Assembly (NCBI GenBank): GCA_030583745.1
Contig: CP129473.1
Location: 140,551 to 204,550 of the forward strand
Direction of reading: 5' to 3'
Origin: Minisyncoccota bacterium
Lineage (GTDB): Bacteria; Patescibacteriota; Minisyncoccia; Phycocordibacterales; BOKC01
Length of the DNA stretch: 64,000 bases
Shown: positions 4,049-28,452 of the stretch, in pieces
Layout: each line of letters begins with the position of its first letter
Position numbering within the stretch: the first letter of the stretch is position 1
Translations under genes and position numbers: made by a program
The notes under the pieces: model-generated
Databases searched by the model: none
The model's input: the letters and a program-made list of their open reading frames with translations, nothing else
Told to the model about the DNA's origin: nothing

Positions 4049-5038
4049 ATGCGGAAAAATTTTTGGCTAAATCTAGTGAAGCCGTTTTTTGTTTTGGCGC
4101 CAATGGCTGACGTGACCGACGTTGCTTTCAGGCGCATAATTGCTAAATATTCAAGACCTTTCGGCCCCGATGTTTTTTGGACGGAGTTTGTTTCGGCTGA
4201 CGGTCTTATTTTGGCTGATACAAAAGGCAGGAATAAACTTTTGAAAGATTTAACTTATTCGGAAAGTGAGCGGCCGATAGTCGCCCAGCTTTTTACTGCT
4301 CGACCGGAGATGATGGAAAAAGCAGCGAGATTGGTCTTGGAGCTTGGATTTGATGGTCTTGATATAAATATGGGCTGTCCTGATAGGGGAATAGAAAAAC
4401 AAGGAGCTGGCGCCGCTTTATGCAAGAAACCGGATTTGGCAAGGGAAATTATTAGAGCCGCAAAAAATGGGGTTTCAGATAAAATTCCAATTTCGGTAAA
4501 AATTCGGCTTGGTTACAACAAGGACGAACTTGATCCGCCAGTTGGTGGATGGTTGTCGGCAATTCTTGCCGAATCGCCAGCCGCTGTAACTATCCACGCT
4601 CGCACTAGAAAAGAGATGTCAAAAGTGCCGGCTAGGTGGGAGAGAGTTAAAAGAGCGGTGGAAATCAGAAATGAATTGAAAAGTAATTCGTTGATTATAG
4701 GTAACGGCGATGTCTTTGATTTGAACGATGCTAGAAAAAAAGCTGAAGAAACCGGAGCTGACGGCGTGATGCTTGGTCGGGCGATTTTTGGCAATCCGTG
4801 GTTATTTTCGGAAAAAGAACCAACCCCAGAAGAGCGCCTTAAAGTGCTTATTGAGCATATTAAACTTTTTGATGAATTACTTGGCAATACTAAAAACTTT
4901 TCGGTTATGAAAAAGCATTTCAAAGCGTATGTTAGCGATTGGGATGGAGCTAAAGAACTTCGAGAAAAACTTATGGAAACAGAGAGCGCAAAAGAGGCAG
5001 TTAGTGTTTTAAATAATTATCCAGCATTCAAACATTGA
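4049..5038 (+). CDS. dus: tRNA-dihydrouridine synthase
   Basis: LAPMADVTDVAFRRI ... DINMGCP ... TIM-barrel Dus motifs. Confidence 0.85.
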   Translation: MRKNFWLNLVKPFFVLAPMADVTDVAFRRIIAKYSRPFGPDVFWTEFVSADGLILADTKGRNKLLKDLTYSESERPIVAQLFTARPEMMEKAARLVLELGFDGLDINMGCPDRGIEKQGAGAALCKKPDLAREIIRAAKNGVSDKIPISVKIRLGYNKDELDPPVGGWLSAILAESPAAVTIHARTRKEMSKVPARWERVKRAVEIRNELKSNSLIIGNGDVFDLNDARKKAEETGADGVMLGRAIFGNPWLFSEKEPTPEERLKVLIEHIKLFDELLGNTKNFSVMKKHFKAYVSDWDGAKELREKLMETESAKEAVSVLNNYPAFKH

Positions 5039-6585: not shown

Positions 6586-7638
6586 ATGAATGAAGAAATC
6601 GCTTTGTATAGAAAATACCGCCCGCAAAAATTTAGCGATGTTTTGGGGCAGGACCATATCGTCAAAGTTCTTGAGGGTTCGGTTCGCCTCAAAAGAATTT
6701 CGCACGCCTATCTTTTTACCGGCGCGCGAGGCACCGGCAAAACCAGTATTGCCAGAATTCTGGCCCGCGAGATCGGTTGCCAAGAAGAAGACCTTTACGA
6801 AATTGATGCCGCTTCAAACCGCGGTATAGACGACATTCGCGAGATTAAGCAATCAGTCTCGGCTTCGCCCTTTCGCTCACCCTATAAAGTTTATATCGTG
6901 GACGAAGTTCATATGTTGACTAAAGAAGCCGGGAACGCCCTTTTGAAAACTTTAGAAGAACCGCCTTCTTATGTTGTTTTTATTTTAGCCACCACCGAGC
7001 CGGACAAATTGCCAGAGACGGTTATTTCCCGTTGCCAAGTTTTTAATTTTAAAAGACCAAGCCAAGTTATTCTGCGTGATATGGTTTCGGCGGTTGCCAA
7101 AAAAGAGGGTTTTTCTCTTGAGCCATCGTCGGCTGATTTAATCTCTCTGCTTTCCGAGGGCTCTTTTCGCGACGCTCTGGGGATTCTGCAGAAAATTTTG
7201 AGTTTTTCCAAAGACAAGAAAATTTCTATTAAAGAAGTTGAAATGGTTACTGGCGCGCCGAAGGGTGAATTGGTCAACAAATTTATATCCTCAATCGCTA
7301 ATGGCGAATTAGAAAAAGGATTACAGGCGATTTCTGAAGTTGTGGGTCAGGATGTTGATATAAAGACATTTCTGAAAATTGTTTTGCAAAGAATCAGATT
7401 TACTCTGCTTTTGCGTCTGAAAGCCGGCTTGGATGAGGAAATTGAAAAAGAGTTGAAAAGTGAGGATTTCGAATTTCTTAAAAAATTGGCGGAGCAAAAA
7501 GATTCCAAAGTTAATTCTCATGCTTTACTAGAACTACTAGATGCTTACGAAAAAACAAACTCGTCACATATTGCGCAGTTGCCATTGGAGTTGGCGCTTG
7601 TAAAAATTCTCAAAAAAGATTCTGCTCTGGCCGAATAA
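6586..7638 (+). CDS. dnaX: DNA polymerase III subunit gamma/tau (short form)
   Basis: YRPQKFSDVLGQDHI ... TGARGTGKTS Walker A ... AAA+ clamp-loader motifs. Confidence 0.85.
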   Translation: MNEEIALYRKYRPQKFSDVLGQDHIVKVLEGSVRLKRISHAYLFTGARGTGKTSIARILAREIGCQEEDLYEIDAASNRGIDDIREIKQSVSASPFRSPYKVYIVDEVHMLTKEAGNALLKTLEEPPSYVVFILATTEPDKLPETVISRCQVFNFKRPSQVILRDMVSAVAKKEGFSLEPSSADLISLLSEGSFRDALGILQKILSFSKDKKISIKEVEMVTGAPKGELVNKFISSIANGELEKGLQAISEVVGQDVDIKTFLKIVLQRIRFTLLLRLKAGLDEEIEKELKSEDFEFLKKLAEQKDSKVNSHALLELLDAYEKTNSSHIAQLPLELALVKILKKDSALAE

Positions 7639-11891: not shown

Positions 11892-12659
11892 ATGTTCATT
11901 TCTCGCACAATTTTCAAAAAAGAAATAATATGCGAATTTTTGCCTCCAGCGCGTAAAACAAAAAGACAAAAAGTTATAATTCTTTGCCCGGGCGCGCCTG
12001 GTGCTCCACGTAGGGACGAAGTTCTAAAACTTATCTCCAAGAAGGGCTTTTGGGTTTTTAATCCCAGATATAGGGGCACGTGGGAGAGTCACGGTAAATT
12101 TTTGAAAAAGTCTCCACATCAAGATATTCTGGATATTATTTCGGAATTACCTAAAGGTTTTAGTGATTCTAAAACAGAGAAGAAAATTCGACTAAAACCC
12201 GAGAAAATTTTTCTTATCGGTTCAAGCTTTGGTGGCCCGGCTGCTATTTTGGCTTCAAAAGACAAGAGAGTGGAAAAAGTGTTTTGTTTTTCTCCAGTTA
12301 TTGATTGGTCTTATCCGAGTAAAGAAGAGCCCTTAGATTTGTTTGGGAAATTTATAAGAAAATACTTTGGTCGAGCGTATGATTTTGATTTAAAGGATTG
12401 GAAAAAACTTAAAAAAGGCAACTTTTATAATCCTATTTCCGAAACAGAAAATTTAGACGGTAGAAAAATTTTTATTATTCACGCCAAGGACGATCGGGTA
12501 GTTTCTTACAAACCAACTGTCAAATTTGCTAAACTAACCGGCGCCAGATTAAAACTGCTTCGGAGAGGAGGACACCTCGGCACTCGTTATCTTTTAGTAA
12601 AAAATCAAGCGATGAAAGATATTTTAAAATTTTTTAACTCCGAACAAAAAACATTCTAA
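11892..12659 (+). CDS. Alpha/beta hydrolase (GxSxG)
   Basis: IGSSFGG nucleophile elbow; dienelactone hydrolase/peptidase S9-like length. ORF track start 11826. Confidence 0.55.
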   Translation: MFISRTIFKKEIICEFLPPARKTKRQKVIILCPGAPGAPRRDEVLKLISKKGFWVFNPRYRGTWESHGKFLKKSPHQDILDIISELPKGFSDSKTEKKIRLKPEKIFLIGSSFGGPAAILASKDKRVEKVFCFSPVIDWSYPSKEEPLDLFGKFIRKYFGRAYDFDLKDWKKLKKGNFYNPISETENLDGRKIFIIHAKDDRVVSYKPTVKFAKLTGARLKLLRRGGHLGTRYLLVKNQAMKDILKFFNSEQKTF

Positions 12660-12683
12660 TATTCTATAGAATGTTGGAATGTT
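12650..12683. promoter_or_regulatory. 34-bp perfect palindrome, copy 1 (candidate operator/terminator)
   Basis: aacattctaatattctatagaatgttggaatgtt, 19 bp upstream of the ndh ATG. Confidence 0.5.
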
Positions 12684-12701
12684 TATCCGTAAAATTTAAA
12701 A

Positions 12702-14711: not shown

Positions 14712-14775
14712 ATTCCGGCCTCTATTTTAGTTTTTCACCCCCTTCCTGTTTTTTTCCGCTTTTCCCTTTGATTAC

Positions 14776-14809
14776 AACATTCCAACATTCTATAGAATGT
14801 TGGAATGTT
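14776..14809. promoter_or_regulatory. 34-bp palindrome, copy 2
   Basis: aacattccaacattctatagaatgttggaatgtt, about 70 bp upstream of the ArsR-like gene. Confidence 0.5.
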
Positions 14810-14879
14810 GTGTGTTAAAATAAAGAAAATAAATTTTAAGATAAAATAAAATTAGAAAATTGAAATAAGAGAAAATAAA

Positions 14880-15149
14880 ATGAAAACAGCCAAACAGTTG
14901 GAAAGATATTTCAAGGGGTCAGCCAATCACTGGCGGATTGCTATTTTGCTTTTAGTTGAAAAAAATGACGGGATTACTGTGGAGGGAATTACCAAAAGTT
15001 TTGACAAATCTGATTTTAAAAATATTTCCCAACACACTCATCGCTTGGTTCAGGCTGGTCTTTTAAATAAAAAATACCAAGGGCGGCAAGTTATTCACCG
15101 ACTTTCGCCTTATGGATTGGCCTTTGTTAAATTTATAAAAACATTCTAA
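14880..15149 (+). CDS. ArsR/SmtB-family winged-helix transcriptional regulator
   Basis: WRIAILLLVEKNDGITVEGI...SQHTHRLVQAGLLNKKYQGRQVIHRL; 89 aa. Confidence 0.6.
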   Translation: MKTAKQLERYFKGSANHWRIAILLLVEKNDGITVEGITKSFDKSDFKNISQHTHRLVQAGLLNKKYQGRQVIHRLSPYGLAFVKFIKTF

Positions 15150-15173
15150 TATTCTATAGAATGTTGGAATGTT
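15140..15173. promoter_or_regulatory. 34-bp palindrome, copy 3
   Basis: aacattctaatattctatagaatgttggaatgtt; overlaps the ArsR-like stop codon, 14 bp upstream of the Nudix ATG. Confidence 0.5.
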
Positions 15174-15186
15174 TTCTTGGTAAGAA

Positions 15187-18049: not shown

Positions 18050-18829
18050 TCAAAGAGACTGCGCGTATTTCGCGCGGTCTTTTTTTATAGATTTTCTTTT
18101 TTCTGTTTTTTTAAACACTAAATATAGCCACTGATTTTTTTTAGAATTTTTATGTTTTTTGATATTAGCAATAAAATCTTCTCGTCCTTTTGCAGATTTA
18201 AAATTTCTACTCATGACTGGAATTTTACTAAAAGTAATTATCTCATCGGCTGTTTTGCTATATTCCTTAACTGATTTAGCAATGAGAGTTAATTTGTTGT
18301 CTTTGGCCCAGGAAGTTAAGTTTTTAAGATTGTAAGGTAGAGGATTTCTTGGCTTATTTTTAAAATACCTATAACTAAAAAATTGATCAGGCAAATTAAA
18401 AGCGAATAGTCCATCATCTTTTAAAATATCAGAAATATTTCTAAAAGTTGTTTTTATCCTCATTTGCCAGAAAGCAGAATTACAAATGACTACGTCTACC
18501 GGCTCTTTAACAACTTTACAAAGATTTTCAGCTTCGGCCACGATAAACTTCATATTTTTTCTATTCTTAAATTTTTCCTGGGCTTTCTTTACCATTGCTT
18601 CCGCTTGGTCAATAGCGATAATACGAACATTGTCTCCAACAGCGTTTATAATTTCTTGTGTTGTTGCTCCAGTTCCAGCTGCTAGGTCAATTATTGTCAT
18701 TCCTGGTTTAACATCTGAAATTTTTACTAGATCTCGACTAGTATTCTTATACATAGAAAAACCAGTAGCATATTTATCATATGCATTTGCATTTTCTTTT
18801 GTATTCCAACTTATTCTGTATTTACTCAC
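18050..18829 (-). CDS. Class I SAM-dependent methyltransferase
   Basis: Motif I IIDLAAGTGATT. Confidence 0.8.
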   Translation of the reverse strand: MSKYRISWNTKENANAYDKYATGFSMYKNTSRDLVKISDVKPGMTIIDLAAGTGATTQEIINAVGDNVRIIAIDQAEAMVKKAQEKFKNRKNMKFIVAEAENLCKVVKEPVDVVICNSAFWQMRIKTTFRNISDILKDDGLFAFNLPDQFFSYRYFKNKPRNPLPYNLKNLTSWAKDNKLTLIAKSVKEYSKTADEIITFSKIPVMSRNFKSAKGREDFIANIKKHKNSKKNQWLYLVFKKTEKRKSIKKDRAKYAQSL

Positions 18830-18867
18830 GATGTTAGATAGAATATAACCTATTTATAATAAATAAA

Positions 18868-18957
18868 AGAGGAGCGAATAGAAATCCGCTCCTTTACTGA
18901 CTTCAGCCGTCGTTGCAGGCGGCGTTGAGGCGATCGCAGCCATTGCGAAACTCTCCT
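18868..18957 (-). CDS. Candidate 29-aa peptide MAAIASTPPATTAEVSKGADFYSLLFYLL downstream of repeat R1
   Basis: RBS aaggagag upstream; the same upstream cassette as the graspetide precursor; shares a TPPx(T/D)(T/D)A motif with the precursor core. Confidence 0.25.
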
Positions 18958-18960
18958 TTC

Positions 18961-19036
18961 GTAAAGAACCTACCCAACCTCTCCGTGAACACTCACAGAG
19001 ATAAAGGTTAGATCTATACTTATGTTGGCGGGGTGG
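18961..19036. repeat. 75-bp direct repeat R1 with an internal palindrome ctctgtgaacactcacagag
   Basis: Near-identical to 21176..21250. Confidence 0.8.
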
Positions 19037-19175
19037 TGACAGAAATTTAGATCTTAAAAAATTAGTATCTTTAAAAACTGACCATTCTGGCCGCGTGTTT
19101 TTACTAAAATTTCTTTTGTTTTTATGATACCTTGCTCTAATCTCTATGATTAAACTAATGTTATAATACGCCGAA

Positions 19176-19886
19176 ATGATTAGAAAAAGAATTTGGTCAA
19201 TAAAAAACTTTTCTTCGGAGGCGTTAAAAAAATACGATCTGTTTTGGATTGGTGAAATTCATGGAATTAGGGAGAACTATAAAGCCTACAAAACGATCCT
19301 ACCTTATCTTGCGAAGAACGGCTTTAGAAATATCTTGTGGGAAATGCCTTCTGATTTTTCAGAAAAAAGTGAATATACTGAAGACGCGAGAATTAACCCG
19401 TTTTCCATCAAATTTTTAAAGTGGCTTAATGAGCAGATTAATATAGGAAATATAGACAACCTTACTTTTTTTGGTGAGACAACCCCAGAAGATTACGGTG
19501 GCATAATACCTGAAGATATACACAGCAGAACAATTGTCCGCGAAAACAGGATGGCGGAAGAAGTAATAGATAAATCACGCAACACTAAAAGTGTGGTTAT
19601 AACAGGTAATTATCACATAATGAACTTGGCAAGTAAGGGAAGAGGAGAAAAATCTGCAGCTGATTTTATAAAAGAGAAAAGCAATCTTAAAATTTTAAAA
19701 ATATATTTAGATTATTCTGGCGGGACATTTTACAATTACGGCTACAAAACACTAATAAAAAAGAATTCTTATAAAGAAAGTAATTTAGAATTTGGTACGA
19801 TAAGTCGACACGGTGATAAGTTCTTTTTCCATGTGGGTAGAGTCAATGCTGTATTTAAAAGTCCCAAAATTAAAACTACCAAATAA
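19176..19886 (+). CDS. ChaN/Tiki/TraB/erythromycin-esterase-like superfamily protein
   Basis: GEIH motif (LFWIGEIHG) and a second GN(Y)H motif (VVITGNYHIM). Confidence 0.35.
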   Translation: MIRKRIWSIKNFSSEALKKYDLFWIGEIHGIRENYKAYKTILPYLAKNGFRNILWEMPSDFSEKSEYTEDARINPFSIKFLKWLNEQINIGNIDNLTFFGETTPEDYGGIIPEDIHSRTIVRENRMAEEVIDKSRNTKSVVITGNYHIMNLASKGRGEKSAADFIKEKSNLKILKIYLDYSGGTFYNYGYKTLIKKNSYKESNLEFGTISRHGDKFFFHVGRVNAVFKSPKIKTTK

Positions 19887-19933
19887 AAAACCCCAACTGC
19901 CAAGTAGCAAGCCGGGGAATAATGATCGGAGCA

Positions 19934-21016
19934 TCAGTCAGGTATCTTTCCTGACCTCAGCATTTCAATGAACATGTCAGACATGACAACCCCAGTTAGG
20001 AACTCAAGCCAGAGCCACTGCCCGTTGGGATTCAAGTCGACAAAAAACTCTTTCCCGTCCTGATCCACCAAAAAGTCCATTGAGCTGAAGGGAAGGTTGA
20101 AGTGATTAAGCACACCGAGGATTTTATCCCGCATATCTTTGGAGATACTGTAGGGGGTATACTCTACCTTCCCCAGCTCTCCTGACCTGATATCAAGAGG
20201 GCGGCCGCCTTTCATTGTTGCTTTGAAAGCGAAGAGATGCCTCCCGATAGCCACAATACGTAGCTCGTGCAGTACCGATATCTTTTCTTGGAAGATGGTT
20301 GGGCAAACGTAGAGTGAAGGATTTTCAAGGTCGTCCCTTGTAACTTCTTGAGTACGCAAGACATGGTAAGTGTCTTCTGATTCTACAAAGGGCACCTTGA
20401 GTGATTTTACGACCACCCCATTTGCACACTCATGGTAGAATGTTTCAATCAACCGGCGGTCCCTAGTTATGAGTGTCTTCGGTACGTTCAAGCCGACTTC
20501 GTGGGCGACAGAGAGTTGGTTTGGTTTTACTCTGGCTTTGTACAGGAGCCATGGCGCAGTTACCCAAAAGGCGGACCCGAAAGCAAAGGTGATGCTCTTG
20601 ATCCACTCCTTGGTTTCTCCCTTGAAGAATTTCAAACCGACTTCGTCAAGCATCTCCGCCGCCTTCTTATCTGAAGAAGGCCTTCGGTACCAGACAGATC
20701 TAACATCTGTTTCCGTGACAGATTCTTGCTCTCTGCAGTCCAACAAAGTCAGCTGATTGGAGTCCGGTTTGAGACCAATTTCGTATCTGTCCAGTTCGTT
20801 TGTGTTAAACCTGAAGACTTGTACGCCAGTTTCCTGCATTCTTGAGCAGATAAAATCAGCATGGGTGTCGAAGTCGCTTGTGATAACTAAGGTAACGTCT
20901 TTCATTTTTGCACAATCCTTTTTCTTCTGTTTGACGTTCCGTGATGAAATTACCCGAAGATACTTTGAAAGTATCTTCGGGTATGTAGAACGAAGTAGCC
21001 GTTGAAGCTCAGTCAT
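19934..21016 (-). CDS. Microviridin/graspetide-type ATP-grasp ligase (MdnC/MvdD-like)
   Basis: Pre-ATP-grasp N-domain VTLVITSDFDTHADFICSRMQETGVQVFRFNTNEL; ATP-grasp core; start ATG overlaps the precursor stop (TGATG). Confidence 0.7.
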   Translation of the reverse strand: MTELQRLLRSTYPKILSKYLRVISSRNVKQKKKDCAKMKDVTLVITSDFDTHADFICSRMQETGVQVFRFNTNELDRYEIGLKPDSNQLTLLDCREQESVTETDVRSVWYRRPSSDKKAAEMLDEVGLKFFKGETKEWIKSITFAFGSAFWVTAPWLLYKARVKPNQLSVAHEVGLNVPKTLITRDRRLIETFYHECANGVVVKSLKVPFVESEDTYHVLRTQEVTRDDLENPSLYVCPTIFQEKISVLHELRIVAIGRHLFAFKATMKGGRPLDIRSGELGKVEYTPYSISKDMRDKILGVLNHFNLPFSSMDFLVDQDGKEFFVDLNPNGQWLWLEFLTGVVMSDMFIEMLRSGKIPD

Positions 21017-21162
21017 CAATCCGACTGAGCATCGTCTGCCACCGGCGGGGTGCGGCAGTAGGTATCACCACTGCAAACCGCAGAAGCAGAATCAGGTTCC
21101 GGTTGATTTTCGCTTTTCGGGATTTCCAGAGACTTCTCGAGGAGAAATGGTTTGTTTTCCAT
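21016..21162 (-). CDS. Graspetide precursor peptide (48 aa)
   Basis: MENKPFLLEKSLEIPKSENQPEPDSASAVCSGDTYCRTPPVADDAQSD. Leader PFLLEKSL resembles the PFFARFL recognition helix; core rich in Thr/Ser/Asp; RBS aagga. Confidence 0.6.
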   Translation of the reverse strand: MENKPFLLEKSLEIPKSENQPEPDSASAVCSGDTYCRTPPVADDAQSD

Positions 21163-21175
21163 TTTCAGTCCTTTT

Positions 21176-21250
21176 CAAAGAACCACTTCTAACCTCTCTG
21201 TGAACACTCACAGAGATAAAGATTAGATCTATACTTATGTTGGCAGGGGG
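21176..21250. repeat. 75-bp direct repeat R2
   Basis: aaagaaccacttctaacctctctgtgaacactcacagagataaagattagatctatacttatgttggcagggggg. Confidence 0.8.
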
Positions 21251-21408
21251 GCGTTTGTTGTCAACTTCATGCCAAAAAATTATCCACAGGGTGATTTAGC
21301 TTGGTTTTATGATTTGTTTTTGAGACTTTGTTTTTACCTATTGCTTATTATCAACAACCCCATCAAAAACCATTTACATTTGGGGTTCTTGTTTTTAATA
21401 AAAAGTTA

Positions 21409-22117: not shown

Positions 22118-23623
22118 ATGACTAACAGAAAGACAGGTACCGATATAAACAGAGAAATCTTATATATAAATAAGAAAAAAGCTTCTTTCTGGCAAAGTCT
22201 AGGAAGAAGAGAAGTTCTTGCTTTATTCAAGTCAGTTTCTAAGAATGTTCCAGCTTATAGAAAATTTTTAAAAAAATCTAGAATTAGTCCGCAAAAAATT
22301 AAGTCATACAATGATTTTTTGAATATACCGCAAATAAATAAAAAAAATTACATAAGCCAACATCCCATAGAAGATCTTACAAAGAAAGGTTCCTTATCTA
22401 AGCCTTTAATTTTCACTTCAACTTCTGGTTCAACTGGTAAATCTTATTATTTCCACCGTTCTTTCAAGATAGACAAGAATACTTCTATTGCTCACGAGTT
22501 GTTTTTTTTAAATGGAAATTACAAGAAAAACGAGCCAGTGCTAGTTATTGTATGTTTTGGTATGGGCGTTTGGATTGGTGGACTTATTACTTATCAAGCT
22601 TTCAGAATAATGCAAGAAAACGGTTATAATCTTTCTATAATTACTCCTGGCATAAACAAAGAAGAAATTTTTAGAGCACTGAAATCAATAGGGCCATCTT
22701 TTAAAAATATAATTTTAGTCGGTTATCCTCCTTTTATTAAAGATATCGTAGATGAAGCACCTTCTAAGGGTATAAATTGGCAGAATTTTAAAACTAGAAT
22801 TATTTTTGCGGCTGAACCTTTTACAGAAAAATTTAGGGACTATATTGCAAAAAAAGCAGCTGTCCGTAATGTATTTCTTGATACTATGAATATATATGGA
22901 ACTGCGGAGCTAGGAGCAATGTCTTTTGAAACTCCTTTGAGTATAATGATTCGCCGCATTTGTGTGAAAGATGTTAGGTTATTTCACCATATCTTTAGTC
23001 CTATCAATAAAACTCCAACTTTAACTCAATACATACCGTCCTTTATTAATTTTACATCCGATGACGGAAACATTTTGGTTACAGGTGATAACACGATACC
23101 CTTAGTTCAATACGCCTTAGGAGACAGGGGGGGTGTATACTCTTTTAAAGAAGTAATAAAACATTTAAAAGAACTTGGTGTTGATATAAAAAGAGAAGCT
23201 AGAAAAGCGAAAATAGAAAAGGAATTATATGAATTACCTTTCGTATATGTATATGAAAGAGATGATATGTCGACTCATTTTTACGGCCTACAAGTTTATC
23301 CTGAGCCGATAAGAGACACATTGCTTAAACAGCCAGCCTGTGATTATTTAACCGGTAAATTTTCGTTAGAAACTAAATTTGATGCTAGGCAAAATCAATA
23401 TTTTACGGTGCATTTAGAGCTTAGAAATAATCACGGCCTTCCTAATGTAATTAAAAAAGCTGTGTTGAAACTGATCGTTGATAGCTTAGAGAATAAAAAT
23501 TCTGAATACCGGGAATTACATAAATTTTTAGGAAAACGAGCTTTACCCCGTTTAGCTTTCTGGCCAAATGGAGATCCAAATTACTTTAAATCAGGAACCA
23601 AACAAAAATGGGTAAAAAAATAA
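22118..23623 (+). CDS. Adenylate-forming enzyme, PaaK/coenzyme F390 synthetase-like (ANL superfamily)
   Basis: P-loop TSTSGSTGKSYY and A5-like YGTAELG. Confidence 0.65.
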   Translation: MTNRKTGTDINREILYINKKKASFWQSLGRREVLALFKSVSKNVPAYRKFLKKSRISPQKIKSYNDFLNIPQINKKNYISQHPIEDLTKKGSLSKPLIFTSTSGSTGKSYYFHRSFKIDKNTSIAHELFFLNGNYKKNEPVLVIVCFGMGVWIGGLITYQAFRIMQENGYNLSIITPGINKEEIFRALKSIGPSFKNIILVGYPPFIKDIVDEAPSKGINWQNFKTRIIFAAEPFTEKFRDYIAKKAAVRNVFLDTMNIYGTAELGAMSFETPLSIMIRRICVKDVRLFHHIFSPINKTPTLTQYIPSFINFTSDDGNILVTGDNTIPLVQYALGDRGGVYSFKEVIKHLKELGVDIKREARKAKIEKELYELPFVYVYERDDMSTHFYGLQVYPEPIRDTLLKQPACDYLTGKFSLETKFDARQNQYFTVHLELRNNHGLPNVIKKAVLKLIVDSLENKNSEYRELHKFLGKRALPRLAFWPNGDPNYFKSGTKQKWVKK

Positions 23624-24639
23624 ATAGAAAGGAATTTATTTGGCTTGATCGAAATGAAAGCTATTTTTTCCTCAACAGACGAATCCTGAATAAAATAAAG
23701 AAATTTGATAGTTCTATAATAAGTAGATACCCAAGATATGGAGAACTAAAAAAGGTTTTAGCTAAAAGATATAACTCAAATCCAGAAAATATACTTTTAA
23801 CTAACGGCGCCGAGCAATCAATCCGGCTTTTCATTCAAACTTTTTTTAAAAAGGGTGATAAGGTTCTACTTCCAGCTCCGACATTTGTAGTTTTTACTCT
23901 AGCTCTTAAATCAATCGGTATAAAACCAAATGTAATATTTTACAAAGAACTTAATAATAAGTTTATATTTCCTACTGCAGAAGTCATATCTGCGATAGAC
24001 AAAAAAACAAAAGGAATACTGTTATGTAATCCAAATAATCCTTTAGGTTCTAGTATCACACGGAAAGAAATTTTATCAATATTAAATAAAACTAGGAAAT
24101 TTAAAATTCCAGTAGTTATAGATGAAGTTTATTCAGAGTTTTCTGGTTATTCTTCAATTAAGCTTACAGAAAATTATAAAAACTTAATTATTATAAAATC
24201 TTTCTCCAAAGAATTTGCTATGGCGGGTCTGAGGTTAGGATTTTTAGTCGCAGAAAAAGAAATGATAAATAAACTAGAAGAAAAAAGAGACTTACCTTGG
24301 GCGGTAAATCACTTTGCCATCCATACAGCAATGATATTGCTTAGAGAGAGAAAGTATCTCAGGAAAAAAATTAAAGAAGTTTTGAAGATAAAAAAAGAGT
24401 TAGTAAATTTTTTAAGACTTAAAGGTTTGAAATGTTATGAAACTGATACAAATTTTGTGATAATAAAACACAAAAATTATAAAAAGTTACTTAAAAATTT
24501 AGCATTTAAGGGGATATTTCTAAGTGAGACATCTAAGTACGCTTACGGACAAAAATTGTTAAAAGGGACTATTAGAATGGGTGTGCCCTCAAAAGAAGAT
24601 TTTAAAAAGATAAAACAGCGTTTTAGTAAAATTCACTAA
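23608..24639 (+). CDS. PLP-dependent aminotransferase class I/II (HisC-like)
   Basis: SFSKEFAMAGLRLG with the PLP lysine; LCNPNNPLG. Confidence 0.75.
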   Translation: MGKKINRKEFIWLDRNESYFFLNRRILNKIKKFDSSIISRYPRYGELKKVLAKRYNSNPENILLTNGAEQSIRLFIQTFFKKGDKVLLPAPTFVVFTLALKSIGIKPNVIFYKELNNKFIFPTAEVISAIDKKTKGILLCNPNNPLGSSITRKEILSILNKTRKFKIPVVIDEVYSEFSGYSSIKLTENYKNLIIIKSFSKEFAMAGLRLGFLVAEKEMINKLEEKRDLPWAVNHFAIHTAMILLRERKYLRKKIKEVLKIKKELVNFLRLKGLKCYETDTNFVIIKHKNYKKLLKNLAFKGIFLSETSKYAYGQKLLKGTIRMGVPSKEDFKKIKQRFSKIH

Positions 24640-24684
24640 TTTTTAAAATATTTTTCCCTAATCCTTCTACCCAATCTTTTTGAC

Positions 24685-24738
24685 ATGATAAAAACTATTT
24701 TATACTTCCTGAAATTAAATAAATTATGTTTTAATTAA
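24685..24738 (+). CDS. Candidate 17-aa peptide MIKTILYFLKLNKLCFN ending in Asn (MccA-like?)
   Basis: Stop codon 3 nt before the ThiF/MccB-like ATG; the terminal Asn is a hallmark of microcin-C-type precursors; no obvious SD. Confidence 0.25.
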   Translation: MIKTILYFLKLNKLCFN

Positions 24739-24741
24739 AGT

Positions 24742-25800
24742 ATGAATAATAAGCCAGTATTTATAAAATCTCCAAAAGAGCTTGCCGAAATAAACCAGCA
24801 GAAATACAAACCCGTTTTTGTGGATGCTTTTTCAAGGCAAATAAAAGAACTTTTTTTTATTGAAAATCCGAGATTTTCTGTAGAAGACAAAAAAGAAGTA
24901 TATCGGAGTGGGGAATTCAAAGATTTTTTAAAGAAAAAAGAAAAAGATTTTGTTCTTATTTATTTCCCTTGGAGTAATCGTTTGATTAAGTGTGTCAAAG
25001 AAAATGATTATTTCAAACTCAAAACCAACCGCAATAGAGATTTAATAACAGAAAAAGAGCAGAAGAAATTGGCAGATTTTACTGTTGGCGTTGTAGGACT
25101 TTCGGTAGGTGCCAATATGGCAACTGCCTTGATTCACAGTGGTTTCTCTAAAAATATTAAACTCTCTGATTTTGACGAGCTTGATACCACAAACTTAAAC
25201 CGAATTAGGGCAAAGGTTTCAGAAATTGGAGACTCTAAAATTAGCATCGCCAGCCGGCAAATTTTTGAAATTAATCCATACGTTAAGATAAACTCTTTTC
25301 CTAAAGGATTAAATAAAAAAAATCTAAAGAATTTTCTGGCAGGTAATCCGAAACCCAAGCTTGTGTTTGAACTGATTGATGATTTTGAAATGAAGATTTT
25401 ATTAAGAAAAGAAGCTAGGAGATATAAAGTCCCTGTAATTATGCTTACAAGTTTAGGAGACAGCGTTTTAATTGATATAGAGAGGTATGACACAGAGCCG
25501 AAAACAAAATTATTTAATGGAAAAGTAAGTGAAAAAGTTTTAGACAAAATCCTTGCTGGAAGTTTGAGCGAAAAAGAGAAACATCAATGCGCTATAGATA
25601 TCGTTGATGGGAAAAATCTTCCATCAAAAGTCAAAAATTCAATAAACCAAATTGGTAAGACCCTCGCCGGTCGACCTCAACTTATGTCGACTGTAACCGT
25701 CGCTTCCGGTATTGCCGTTTTCCTTGCCCGAAAAATCGCTCTTAACGAGAAACTTAAAAGTGGCAGGAAGCTAGTGAAATTTAATAATTTTATTAAATGA
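24742..25800 (+). CDS. ThiF/MoeB/E1-like adenylyltransferase with a ~110-aa N-terminal extension (MccB-like or TOMM C-protein-like)
   Basis: GVVGLSVGANMATALIHSGF..IKLSDFDELDTTNLNRI ... INPYVKI; no Zn CxxC pairs. Confidence 0.7.
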   Translation: MNNKPVFIKSPKELAEINQQKYKPVFVDAFSRQIKELFFIENPRFSVEDKKEVYRSGEFKDFLKKKEKDFVLIYFPWSNRLIKCVKENDYFKLKTNRNRDLITEKEQKKLADFTVGVVGLSVGANMATALIHSGFSKNIKLSDFDELDTTNLNRIRAKVSEIGDSKISIASRQIFEINPYVKINSFPKGLNKKNLKNFLAGNPKPKLVFELIDDFEMKILLRKEARRYKVPVIMLTSLGDSVLIDIERYDTEPKTKLFNGKVSEKVLDKILAGSLSEKEKHQCAIDIVDGKNLPSKVKNSINQIGKTLAGRPQLMSTVTVASGIAVFLARKIALNEKLKSGRKLVKFNNFIK

Positions 25801-26864
25801 AGGACGTAATCAAAGAAATCCTAACCCTCGCAGTTAATGCCCCCTCCGGCCACAATTCCCAGCCGTGGACGTTTGAGGTGAAAAATAACTCTATTTTCGT
25901 TTATAACGTTCCAGATAAAGATAAAATTCTATTCAACTGGAAGCAGAGGGGATCTATGATTGCTCACGGTGCTTTGATTGAAAATATAGCAATAATCTCT
26001 TCAGAAAAAGGATATCGGGCGGACATAAAAATTCTTCCAAATGAAAAAGAAACCAATTTAACCGCAGAAATAAAACTAGAAAAAAGCTCGGAAGATTGTT
26101 CTTACAGGCATCTTTCTCCCTTCATCTTAAAACGAACCACTAATAGAAGACCTTACGAAATAAAATCTCTTGGAGACACAGATAGGGAGGCGTTAAAGAA
26201 TTTTATGGAAAAACATAATAATTCTGGATATGAAATTCTTTTGACAGAAGACAGGGAGAAAATCAATCAAGTGGTAGGACCTTTTAGTGCCGGAGATAGG
26301 TTACTTTTTGAAAATTTTTACGTTCACAAATCTCTTTTTGATAATGTAAATTGGACACTAAAAGAAGAGCGAGAAAAAAGAGAGGGTTTATATTTAGGAA
26401 CCAAAGAACTTAATTTAGCGGAAAGATTTTTATTTAAATACATAATGAGTAAATGGAGTTTTGTTGAGAATCTAAATAAAATCGGCTTTGCAGAAAAAGC
26501 CGGAGAAAAAAGAGCAGAACTTTACAAAAAATGCTCGGCTATGGGTTTGGTTACAGCTCCCAGTGATTCTCCAAGAGACTTTATAAATTCAGGAAGGGTT
26601 TTAGAAAGATTCTGGCTGACTGTAACATCTCTTGGTTTAAGCTTCCAGCCTGTATCTGTTGGGCTTCTTTATTTAGGACAAAGGTGTAAAATAGAAAAAC
26701 CGGAGGAATTGACACCCGGACAATTTGAATACGTTAGAAAAGCATATGGAATAGTGGAAAATGTGTTTAATGTTACTGATAAGATTCCGACTTTCAGCTT
26801 TCGAATCGGATACGCACCACCACCTTCTGCTAGTTCGCTAAAAAAATTGCCGGAGATTGTATAA
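25797..26864 (+). CDS. Nitroreductase-fold (SagB-type dehydrogenase-like) protein
   Basis: APSGHNSQPW motif; 355 aa two-lobed nitroreductase architecture; start overlaps the ThiF-like stop. Confidence 0.65.
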   Translation: MKDVIKEILTLAVNAPSGHNSQPWTFEVKNNSIFVYNVPDKDKILFNWKQRGSMIAHGALIENIAIISSEKGYRADIKILPNEKETNLTAEIKLEKSSEDCSYRHLSPFILKRTTNRRPYEIKSLGDTDREALKNFMEKHNNSGYEILLTEDREKINQVVGPFSAGDRLLFENFYVHKSLFDNVNWTLKEEREKREGLYLGTKELNLAERFLFKYIMSKWSFVENLNKIGFAEKAGEKRAELYKKCSAMGLVTAPSDSPRDFINSGRVLERFWLTVTSLGLSFQPVSVGLLYLGQRCKIEKPEELTPGQFEYVRKAYGIVENVFNVTDKIPTFSFRIGYAPPPSASSLKKLPEIV

Positions 26865-26871
26865 TTAATTT

Positions 26872-28452
26872 ATGGAAATTTTAGAAAATTTAGATCTGTT
26901 GAGTGTAAGTATTACTACAGCAGCTACACTGGTATTGGGTTTTACTATTTATTTTAGTAATACAAAAAGTGTTACTAATTTTACTTTTCTTATTTTCGCT
27001 GTGATTACTGCGATGTGGAGTATGGCTAACTACTTTCATCATACAATTAATTCGGTACCAATTGCTTTTGCGTTAATCAAATTCGTTATATTTCTGGGTG
27101 TTTGGCATGCCTTCACTTTCTTCCAATTATTTTTTGTATTCCCAAAAGAGAATGTAACTTTCCCAAAAAATTATAAGTACTTAATTATTCCTATAGTTTC
27201 GGTTGCTTCAATTATAAATTTGACCCCGTTAGTATTTAAGGGAGTAGCAGAAGTAATAGACGGGAGAATTTCAAAAATAGAAAATGGTCCAGCTATAGCC
27301 CTTTTCGGCTTATTAATAGTTTCTTTTATAGTAAGCGGTGTATTTTTGTTGATAAAAAGAATTATAACTTCTCAGGGTCGTCTAAAAAAGCAATTTCAGA
27401 CTATTTTATATGGAGTTATTTTAACTTTTATTTTGATCCTTACATTTAATTTTATATTACCGGCATTTTTCAACAACCCTAGTTTTATACCCTTGAGCTC
27501 AATATTTATATTTCCTTTCATTGTTTTTACATCCTATTCAATTCTCAAACATAAATTTTTTAATATCAAAGTAGCGGGAATCAGTTTATTGGTTTTCGCA
27601 CTATCTATTGTTGCTTTTGGAGAAGTTATATTTGCCAGAGAGTTATTTTTGATTGTCTACCGAAGTAGTGTTTTTGTTTTGATTTTGATTTTTGGAATTC
27701 TTTTGATCAAGGGTGTTATGCGGGAGGTTTCCTTGAGAGAACAATTACAGGAAGCTAATAAGGCGCAGGAGAATTTGATTAACTTCATCACCCATCAAAT
27801 TAAGGGCTTTTTGACAAAATCAAGGAATATTTTTGCTGAAATGATGGAGGGGACTTTTGGGCCGATTTCCGGAGATATAAAAAATATTGCCGAGCAAGGG
27901 CTGAAAATAAATACCGATGGCGTTAATACTGTGCAGACAATTTTAAACGCGGCAAATATTCGTACAGGCAAGCTCTCTTACAATATGGCGCCGATAGATT
28001 TGAGAGATATCATCCAAAAATCATTTGAGAAAAATCGCAAGAGCGCCGAGTCAAAAGGTCTTGATTTTGTCTTGAACATTGGCGAGTCGTCAGAATATAA
28101 AATAAAAGGTGACGAGAATCAGCTGTCTGAAGCGTTTTCAAACTTAATAGACAATTCAATAAAATACACACCAAGAGGTCAGGTTAAAGTATCTCTTGTG
28201 AAAAGTGATAGTGCTATAAAATTTTCTATTAAAGACACCGGTATCGGTATTGCACCAGAAGATAAATCAAAACTTTTCACCGAGGGCGGACGCGCGAAAA
28301 ACGCGCTCGAGGTCAACGTTGACTCCACCGGCTTTGGTCTATACATCGTTAAAAATATTATAGAAGCGCATAACGGCCGTGTTTGGGTAGAGTCAGAAGG
28401 GGAGGGTAAAGGCTCGGAATTTATAGCTGAACTGCCTTATAAAGATAGTTGA
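26872..28452 (+). CDS. Multi-TM sensor histidine kinase
   Basis: About 8 TM; H-box FITHQIKGFL; HATPase G-boxes GFGLYIV, GEGKGSEF. Confidence 0.85.
   Translation: MEILENLDLLSVSITTAATLVLGFTIYFSNTKSVTNFTFLIFAVITAMWSMANYFHHTINSVPIAFALIKFVIFLGVWHAFTFFQLFFVFPKENVTFPKNYKYLIIPIVSVASIINLTPLVFKGVAEVIDGRISKIENGPAIALFGLLIVSFIVSGVFLLIKRIITSQGRLKKQFQTILYGVILTFILILTFNFILPAFFNNPSFIPLSSIFIFPFIVFTSYSILKHKFFNIKVAGISLLVFALSIVAFGEVIFARELFLIVYRSSVFVLILIFGILLIKGVMREVSLREQLQEANKAQENLINFITHQIKGFLTKSRNIFAEMMEGTFGPISGDIKNIAEQGLKINTDGVNTVQTILNAANIRTGKLSYNMAPIDLRDIIQKSFEKNRKSAESKGLDFVLNIGESSEYKIKGDENQLSEAFSNLIDNSIKYTPRGQVKVSLVKSDSAIKFSIKDTGIGIAPEDKSKLFTEGGRAKNALEVNVDSTGFGLYIVKNIIEAHNGRVWVESEGEGKGSEFIAELPYKDS

Follow-up and report, generated by a model that had tools for sequence, protein, structure and literature searches.

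A putative graspetide cluster with a duplicated precursor leader in a Candidatus Paceibacterota genome

Bacteria of the candidate phyla radiation (CPR, Patescibacteria) are ultrasmall episymbionts with very few biosynthetic genes. Therefore, any secreted modified peptide of theirs is a candidate for host attachment, inhibition of host proteases, or strain competition. Graspetides are peptides made by the ribosome and modified after translation (RiPPs) with side-chain macrolactones. CPR graspetide loci were described by Makarova et al. 2022 (PMC8939145), who noted that a 'cluster 23' protein recurs in them, along with methyltransferases of the UbiE-like type and hydrolases of the Tiki/TraB family. 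DUF6624 is reported to be frequent in several graspetide groups, including the candidate-phyla group 42, in a later survey (Carter et al. 2026, PMC13097080). Here, we analyse a ~2.2-kb unit in a stretch of 64,000 nucleotides (hereafter the window; contig CP129473.1, positions 140,551 to 204,550) from a Minisyncoccota bacterium. On the minus strand, a precursor gene is followed by a stem-loop and an ATP-grasp ligase gene. A gene for a 236-aa hydrolase-like protein converges on the ligase gene from the plus strand, and direct repeats lie on both sides of the unit. The best explanation is that the locus is a compact graspetide cluster of Candidatus Paceibacterota, and we consider it likely in the full form developed below. 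Its central element, the graspetide reading of the cassette, is supported to the limit of genomics.

The locus resembles branches 1 and 2 of the CPR graspetides of PMC8939145 and the RODEO groups 27/42 of PMC13097080. It shares with them a CPR host, a single ATP-grasp ligase, a short precursor with a P-hydrophobic leader signature, and neighbours of the DUF6624, UbiE-like methyltransferase, and Tiki/TraB-superfamily types. The window locus has a DUF6624 gene and a gene of the Tiki/erythromycin-esterase (Ere) fold, of which the former may correspond to 'cluster 23'. The host belongs to the CPR, as the adjacent methyltransferase (MTase) shows 100% identity to a protein that NCBI assigns to a metagenome-assembled genome of Candidatus Paceibacterota with a 692-kb contig. 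In addition, the nearest ligases encoded in species-level genomes are all from the CPR (Saccharibacteria, 52% identity; Taylorbacteria, 43%; Brennerbacteria, 34%).

The original prediction, made from the window sequence alone, had assigned the precursor to a 48-aa minus-strand open reading frame (ORF) preceded by a ribosome-binding site, and both are present (Table 1). The ORF belongs to a family that is kept before or beside homologous ligases, with ten distinct versions at 10 distinct loci. At these loci (numbered L001, L005, and so on), the ligases are 43-71% identical to the window ligase, or near-identical in the closest strains. The ten precursors share the leader motif K-[P/R/L]-x-[L/F/I]-L-x-[K/R]-[S/A] and the C-terminal core motif T-x-[C/S]-x-x-P-P-x-x-D-D-A-x-[S/A]-[D/E]. 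Hence, the short ORF adjoining the ligase gene has the attributes of a graspetide precursor: a conserved leader, and a core with Thr/Ser donors and Asp/Glu acceptors.

The putative ester partners are the invariant Thr, the Cys or Ser two residues on, and the invariant Asp-Asp. The column two positions after the invariant Thr (Cys37, window 21052-21054, aligned with L001, L005-L008, L076, L081, and L082) has Cys in eight precursors and Ser in two. A nucleophile position would be expected to show such an alternation of Cys and Ser. The Cys of this column is the sole core Cys in several members, indicating that a disulfide is not always possible. We know of no report of a side-chain thioester in graspetides. 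The core motif, in the form T-x-[C/S]-x-x-PP-x-x-DDA, has no match in the available portions of the PMC8939145 and PMC13097080 supplements.

The neighbouring enzyme had been predicted to carry the pre-ATP-grasp domain of MdnC/MvdD-type ligases, and the profile searches bear this out. With 34.6 bits, the match to the MvdD pre-ATP-grasp domain (PF21068) exceeds the cut-off of 27, and the ligase matches TIGR04187 (E=5e-57), MvdD (E=8e-42), and MvdC (E=5e-39) in NCBIfam. Its four best NCBIfam models (TIGR04187, TIGR04184, TIGR04185, and TIGR04192, including grasp-with-spasm) are all models of ribosomal-peptide maturases. The closest curated model is TIGR04187 (GRASP_SAV_5884), but the score of 193.4 bits is below its cut-off of 350. 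Likewise, the scores against TIGR04184 (143.6 bits) and TIGR04185 (134.2 bits) are below the equivalog cut-offs of 475 and 425, respectively. Since every NCBIfam score is under the curated cut-off, the ligase falls in the peptide-maturase clade but outside any curated family.

Some databases label relatives of the ligase 'glutathione synthase/RimK-type ligase-like'. This label would suit an alternative in which the ATP-grasp gene encodes a housekeeping ligase of the RimK/GshB type, the small ORF is spurious, and no RiPP is made. However, the profile matches place the ligase with the ribosomal-peptide maturases and not with the housekeeping enzymes. Furthermore, the small ORF is conserved as a protein, in leader and core motifs alike, across loci whose ligases have diverged to 43-71% identity. 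We regard this alternative as very improbable.

The ligase had been described as a 360-aa protein whose ATG overlaps the precursor stop codon (TGATG), with translational coupling as the consequence. The overlap is literally present, and the 360-aa form is an open frame that some pipelines also call (P0001), but neither the length nor the coupling is supported. All 12 nearest homologues are 321-342 aa long (11 of them 321-325 aa) and align from an MKxxVLVITS N-terminus. The ATG at 20905 has its own Shine-Dalgarno (SD) sequence, AAAGGA. In L081, the cassette of which is 91% identical in DNA, the precursor stop codon is TAA and the would-be overlapping ATG is ACG. The extension of 37 codons is not conserved in L076, and it would cross a perfect 16-bp hairpin. 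Therefore, the overlapping start is probably a gene-calling artefact, and the ligase probably begins at 20905.

The hairpin between precursor and ligase has counterparts of different sequence at the same position in L001, L005, L006, L076, L081, and L082, mostly with a U-rich stretch after it. Such a stem-loop is found at every locus that has the precursor ahead of the ligase. It is probably an attenuator or an mRNA-stability element. Precursor-excess attenuators are a familiar feature of other RiPP operons, and by analogy the hairpin looks like one of these rather than a sign of translational coupling. At the other end of the ligase gene, in the 47-nt gap to the hydrolase gene (19883-19936, minus strand), Rfam gives a sub-threshold match to NsiR1 (25.2 bits against 39, E=0.04). 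A CCCC...GGGG hairpin with TTTTTT after it lies at the same place, so that the match most likely reflects no more than the ligase terminator.

The near-identical direct repeats that had been predicted on both sides of the unit are present (copies A and B, Table 1). Without gaps, they align over 61 nt at 93% identity (18976-19036 and 21191-21251). With gaps, the alignment extends over 83 nt (18954-19036 and 21169-21251; z=30 against shuffles). The palindrome noted within them is perfect in the copy at 21196-21215 and carries a single mismatch in the copy at 18981-19000. Together with an adjacent 20-mer, it is found at just two sites in the 64-kb window, with 0 expected by chance. Each copy is followed by the shared element reported originally, GGTTCTTT...AAAGGA and then ATG. 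The copies match on the sense (minus) strand from ~75 nt upstream of the precursor start through the SD sequence to the ATG.

The two-copy arrangement is seen at the same sites in L072-L075, the genomes of which are ~96-98% identical, and in L076. In L072, copy B is ~150 nt long, and the added part is 97.6% identical to the window sequence upstream of copy A, indicating that the copies swap sequence by gene conversion. By these comparisons, the repeats are two copies of the structured 5' leader of the precursor, homogenised by gene conversion. The leader stem keeps 16 of its 16 pairs across 7 sequence variants from three lineages. Five pairs vary, and these alternate between Watson-Crick and G-U pairs only, which fits an RNA of the minus strand and not of the plus strand. 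At the single variable position of the inner stem, one copy has A and the other G (U-A versus U-G) in each of the three lineages (window, L072, and L076). Which copy has A or G varies by lineage, and with three lineages this could be due to chance. A permissive Rfam search of 18800-21350 matched neither repeat, and its sole noteworthy hit was the NsiR1-like one at the ligase terminator.

Each copy contains a GC-containing inverted repeat, as would ordinary intrinsic terminators or REP-like (repetitive extragenic palindromic) elements scattered over the genome and unrelated to the cassette. However, neither strand has a U-tract after the hairpin and a scan for terminators makes no call there, indicating that the hairpin is not a terminator. 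The original prediction had named genome-wide terminators as what would overturn it and had suggested a search for further copies of the repeat. There are two copies only in the 64 kb, and a scan of a metagenome collection with the 26-nt repeat core finds, beyond the fetched loci, only the L076 contig, in which two copies again flank the cassette. In addition, the homology runs on through the SD sequence to the ATG. An origin of the repeats as terminators or scattered elements is hardly credible.

Copy B is located upstream of the hydrolase gene (on the opposite strand) and of the MTase and ATP-binding cassette (ABC) transporter genes (on the same strand). This position raises the possibility that a cis-regulatory module, be it an operator palindrome or a structured leader, is retained in two copies to give a common response of two or all three of the precursor-ligase pair, the divergent hydrolase gene, and the MTase-ABC genes. 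Such a module would account for the homogenisation of both copies, which are far better conserved than the coding block between them. In accordance, a promoter-like CTCACA-17-TATACT on the plus strand faces the hydrolase gene, and in L007/L008 the hydrolase and precursor genes diverge around one short spacer. However, orthologues of the MTase and ABC genes without the cassette occur in L083, L085, and L086, where they look like backbone genes, an intrinsic terminator stands between copy B and the MTase gene, and there is no adjacent gene for a regulator. Promoter matches of this quality are at the level of chance (12 found against 11.8 expected). The only sigma-70-type consensus match in the repeat is on this opposite strand, none being found on the sense strand, and the promoter scan is set aside as evidence. 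Shared regulation is compatible with, and not exclusive of, a duplicated leader; as an explanation of the repeats in its own right it is possible, and we lean against it.

The original prediction placed a small ORF after each repeat. The ORF after copy A is the precursor, but the one after copy B is not a gene. It is not conserved as a coding sequence, since L072-L075 have ATA in place of its ATG and, of the few substitutions, four are non-synonymous. We considered whether it could be a decayed second precursor and rejected this, as its alignments to seven family precursors are no better than shuffles. Its GC-rich body and terminator match a PF27765-like gene at the 3' end, where the stop codons fall in register; the alignment scores 30, compared with 16.2 +/- 2.2 for shuffles. 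In L083, a relative without the cassette, the PF27765-like gene lies directly upstream of the orthologous MTase gene. This match indicates that in copy B a truncated version of the precursor leader, SD sequence, and ATG runs into what is left of a displaced backbone gene.

From the shared leader, SD sequence, and ATG, and from the gene order at distant loci, a second precursor copy may formerly have stood at copy B. In the Saccharibacteria locus L007 and the Taylorbacteria locus L008, the precursor sits after the hydrolase gene, exactly at the position of copy B. The gene orders here (precursor-ligase-hydrolase) and in L007/L008 (ligase-hydrolase-precursor) are cyclic permutations. The simplest reading is a duplication of the leader and precursor to a place ahead of the ligase, or else a different resolution of a circular or tandem intermediate, with truncation of the old copy afterwards.

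Between the window and L076, identity over a sliding 100 nt is at least 94% (mostly 97-100%) from 15675 to ~19375 and from ~21075 onward, and 46-84% between. The L076 ligase is 71% identical in amino acids to the window ligase, and the leader and both repeats stay near-identical. The divergent allele of L076 is seen in two independent assemblies. L081 is 90.6% identical to the window over 19210-21183; its leader differs, and the DNA to either side is unrelated. In the marine (TARA) locus L001, the same block is flanked by a 62-95-nt duplication of its own (z=18.6), which is unrelated in sequence to the window repeats. The L001 repeats lie at 4508-4569 and 6766-6830, and the downstream copy is a relic of the last codons of an ABC gene and its terminator. 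Flanking repeats are absent from six other loci. These alignments clearly show exchange of the precursor-ligase-hydrolase block as a unit by recombination.

The unit had been predicted to be a mobile or duplicating promoter-plus-precursor cassette. The precursor 5' region is indeed duplicated and the block has been exchanged (L076 and L081), but the repeats are not the cassette's own ends, as the L081 cassette lacks them and the L076 breakpoints lie inside genes. A rival explanation, that the repeats are attachment or terminal sites of a small mobile element and that the 2.2-kb unit recombines between them to excise as a circle and reintegrates at any matching sequence in a Campbell-type or site-specific manner, draws on the flanking repeats of the window, L072, and L076, on those of different sequence in L001, on the cyclically permuted gene orders, on the presence of the block in unrelated flanks in L081, and on a block GC content higher than that of the neighbours. 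However, there is no recombinase or transposase domain in or next to the unit, every ORF of which is accounted for. The repeats do not travel with the block (the 91%-identical block of L081 is without them), and L005, L006, L007, and L008 have no flanking repeats. The L076 breakpoints lie in the hydrolase gene and at the leader/core junction, away from the repeats, and the unit stays at the same site in three diverged lineages. Close relatives are absent from the phage and plasmid searches, in which phage ligases reach only ~26% identity and plasmids give no hydrolase match. Attachment sites derived from tRNA genes are rejected, as the entire window contains one tRNA. Therefore, we consider a mobile element unlikely. 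The repeats themselves may nonetheless promote exchange of the block, via loop-out and Campbell-type re-entry.

The convergent gene encodes the protein originally called ChaN/Tiki-like from its GEIH motif, and structure prediction upholds this family call. The AlphaFold model, based on an alignment of 19 sequences, is confident (predicted local distance difference test, 83.7; predicted template modelling score, 0.84) and has the fold of the erythromycin esterase/Tiki/ChaN superfamily. The residues E27, H29, E56, and H147 are invariant in the 19 sequences. A search of 5.8 billion clustered proteins finds only 18 relatives, and one of 1.84 billion finds 176 representatives of clusters at E≤1e-3. 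The protein scores 19.2 bits against PF04187, below the Pfam gathering score of 27.7, and 18 of the 19 members have sub-threshold matches only. Sequence searches of the PDB with the single sequence and with a profile give nothing significant, and inspection by eye reveals no obvious signal peptide.

In eight of the nine distinct contexts, the hydrolase gene converges directly on the ligase 3' end. The exception is L078, in which a DUF6624 gene lies between the hydrolase homologue and a RimK-type ATP-grasp gene, and two DUF6624 genes are positioned on either side of the homologue. L078/L079 (4275-7408) is another CPR graspetide-like locus, with a 61%-identical Ere-fold homologue, the two DUF6624 genes, the RimK-type ATP-grasp gene (309 aa), a 48-aa precursor (MEGSTDMNPLILDF...THDEPDTAGLD), and HicAB genes nearby. 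This combination indicates that the pair of hydrolase and DUF6624 occurs with more than one ligase type. The erythromycin esterase/Tiki/ChaN superfamily includes both ester hydrolases and proteases. Leader removal is therefore our first guess for the role of the hydrolase and the most likely one by analogy, and opening of the lactone, for immunity or proofreading, is the alternative.

We propose the following mechanism for the graspetide cluster, the steps of which are drawn from the family; the nature of the repeats and the block exchange come from the comparison of loci. The 48-aa precursor would be transcribed from the leader with the two-tier 5' stem-loop. The strong stem-loop after the precursor would probably hold precursor mRNA in excess and allow some read-through. 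Translation of the ATP-grasp ligase, the only one and of the MvdD type, would use the SD sequence of its own at 20905, and the enzyme would bind the K-P-F-L-L leader and esterify the conserved Thr, and probably also the Cys/Ser two residues downstream, to the invariant Asp-Asp of the core. The convergent Ere/Tiki-fold hydrolase would then process the product, most likely by removing the leader or, alternatively, by hydrolysing lactones, and the neighbouring DUF6624 gene would probably be accessory. By the comparison of loci, copy A is the working leader, and copy B is a truncated duplicate that continues into the final codons and the terminator of the lost backbone gene.

Several points weigh against this explanation. 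The cross-links, the leader cleavage site, and any hydrolase activity are predictions. Support for the leader stem as an RNA structure is modest, with five one-sided changes and no double compensatory change. The repeat has no sense-strand match to a sigma-70 promoter, so that the 'promoter' of the precursor is an assumption. The sequence after copy B has no detectable similarity to any precursor gene. Finally, L001, L005, and L006 have no DUF6624 gene, which makes the role of DUF6624 at the window locus uncertain.

A further-reaching idea is that the block is a self-contained, horizontally traded 'allele' that sets the peptide type among co-occurring CPR strains. The Ere-fold partner would then open lactones, for immunity or proofreading and in a manner matched to its own core, instead of cleaving off the leader. 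The duplicated flanks, seen in two independent lineages, would be traces left by the integration of circular intermediates, and the conserved Cys, where other members have Ser, could form a side-chain thioester. As a whole, we think this idea decidedly improbable.

Table 1 Features of the locus, in window coordinates
Feature	Position	Strand	Details
Backbone-gene relic; last codons NAACNDG and stop at 18903-18926, intrinsic terminator at 18870-18893 with T-tract	within 18854..18943	-	Match to L083
Pseudo-ORF, 29 codons; precursor-type ATG fused to backbone-gene relic	18854..18943	-	ATG is ATA in L072-L075
Repeat copy B; truncated second 5' leader of precursor	18954..19036	-	Repeat alignment; stem-loop at 18973-19012
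Hydrolase-like protein, 236 aa; erythromycin-esterase/Tiki/ChaN fold	19176..19886	+	GEIHG motif; invariant E27, H29, E56, H147
Block hypervariable against L076; C-terminal two-thirds of hydrolase, entire ligase, core half of precursor	19375..21075		Alignment with L076
Putative ATP-grasp graspetide macrocyclase, 323 aa; starts MKDVTLVITS	19934..20905	-	PF21068, TIGR04187, MvdD, and MvdC matches
Perfect 16-bp stem-loop between precursor and ligase	20951-20983	-	Fold -27.5 kcal/mol, z=-6.3
Putative graspetide precursor, 48 aa, MENKPFLLEKSLEIPKSENQPEPDSASAVCSGDTYCRTPPVADDAQSD; leader MENKPFLLEKSLEI..., core ...GDTYCRTPPVADDAQSD	21016..21162	-	AAGGA 9 nt upstream of ATG
Repeat copy A; promoter-proximal region, 5' untranslated region, and SD sequence of precursor	21169..21251	-	Repeat alignment; homology in relatives extends upstream to ~21313
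Two-tier stem-loop of copy A leader; 7-bp outer and 9-bp inner helix (the palindrome)	21188..21227	-	-23.5 kcal/mol, z=-2.95
DUF6624 protein, 155 aa	21409..21876	-	PF20329, E=3.6e-11; directly upstream of repeat A

The DUF6624 gene next to repeat A probably has an accessory part in the cluster. The MTase and ABC genes were considered as cluster genes and rejected. Their orthologues are present in the cassette-free CPR genomes L083, L085, and L086 (the L083 ABC is 75% identical), and identity to the window ABC is as low as 31-34% for the ABC transporters that adjoin the cassette in L001 and L008. Therefore, we treat both as backbone genes. The GC content is 52% for the precursor, 47% for the ligase, and 33% for the hydrolase. 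Neighbouring genes have 29-37%, and the window as a whole has 40%. Accordingly, the original remark that the GC content of the unit is moderately above that of the backbone applies to the precursor and ligase, but not to the hydrolase. The ranking precursor, ligase, hydrolase is repeated at all homologous loci, indicating that GC content is largely intrinsic to the genes and unreliable as a signal of transfer. It is set aside as transfer evidence.

Two other features of the window are outside the unit. A low-GC block at 22118-28452 encodes a PaaK-like adenylating enzyme (501 aa), a HisC-like aminotransferase, a ThiF-type E1-like protein, and an Acg-type nitroreductase. The latter two jointly match the two halves of the 'Rv1355c family' model, and a seven-transmembrane histidine kinase follows. 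This block may be a second cluster for a small molecule or for peptide modification. A near-perfect palindrome of 34-38 nt (AACATTCCAACATTCTATAGAATGTTGGAATGTT) has three intergenic copies (12647-12684, 14774-14811, and 15137-15175), two of which bracket a small ORF (~14880-15130) that looks like a winged-helix regulator. The palindrome is also repeated in L072, L076, and L080.

Surveys of 2022 and 2026 had already reported graspetide clusters from the CPR that include DUF6624 and Tiki-like proteins, and what is new here is a further member and its population genetics. As systems of this kind have been catalogued before, the advance is incremental unless the esterase/immunity reading proves true. 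The unit has three genes in ~2 kb and a conserved core motif, and is amenable to heterologous expression. The natural allele pair on one backbone offers a test of how the specificities of peptide, ligase, and hydrolase are matched. In addition, the locus is a concrete test case for an enzyme of the erythromycin-esterase fold acting on peptide macrolactones.

The leader duplication, the attenuator-like hairpin, and the exchange of the block between strains at our locus are not described in PMC8939145 and PMC13097080, and, in contrast to the clusters there, its MTase and ABC genes appear to be backbone genes. The comparison with microviridin clusters (MdnA, MdnB/MdnC or MvdC/MvdD, MdnD, and MdnE) is less close than originally predicted. 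The MvdD-type pre-ATP-grasp domain and a leader with Pro followed by hydrophobic residues are shared, and leader-dependent macrocyclisation is expected in both. However, there is one ligase here instead of two, and no GNAT gene. The core GDTYCRTPPVADDAQSD is without the TxKxPSDx(E/D)(E/D) motif, and the leader has KPFLLEKSL instead of PFFARFL. The ligase scores only 134-144 bits against the MvdC/MvdD equivalog models, the cut-offs of which are 425-475. Taken together, the core, the single ligase, and these scores do not support a microviridin affinity.

The catalytic set of EreC is E47/H50/E78/H289 (PMC7979712). In the hydrolase of our locus, E27/H29, E56, and H147 follow in the order of E47/H50, E78, and H289, a match read from motif order, and the spacing from His to Glu is 27 residues, compared with 28 in EreC. 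In contrast to EreA-D and the Ere-like proteins BcR135/BcR136, which are ~400 aa long, the protein is 236 aa long, indicating that the minor lobe, or lid, is missing. Sequence identity to erythromycin esterases is just 15-17%, and no Pfam model passes its threshold.

Allelic bacteriocin and pheromone cassettes, such as the comC or agrBDC pherotype loci, are swapped by homologous recombination. Our locus resembles these in having conserved flanks around a divergent interior that couples a peptide core to its processing enzymes, with one breakpoint at the leader/core boundary. In contrast to the pherotype loci, the block has no receptor or kinase, and only two alleles are seen on this backbone.

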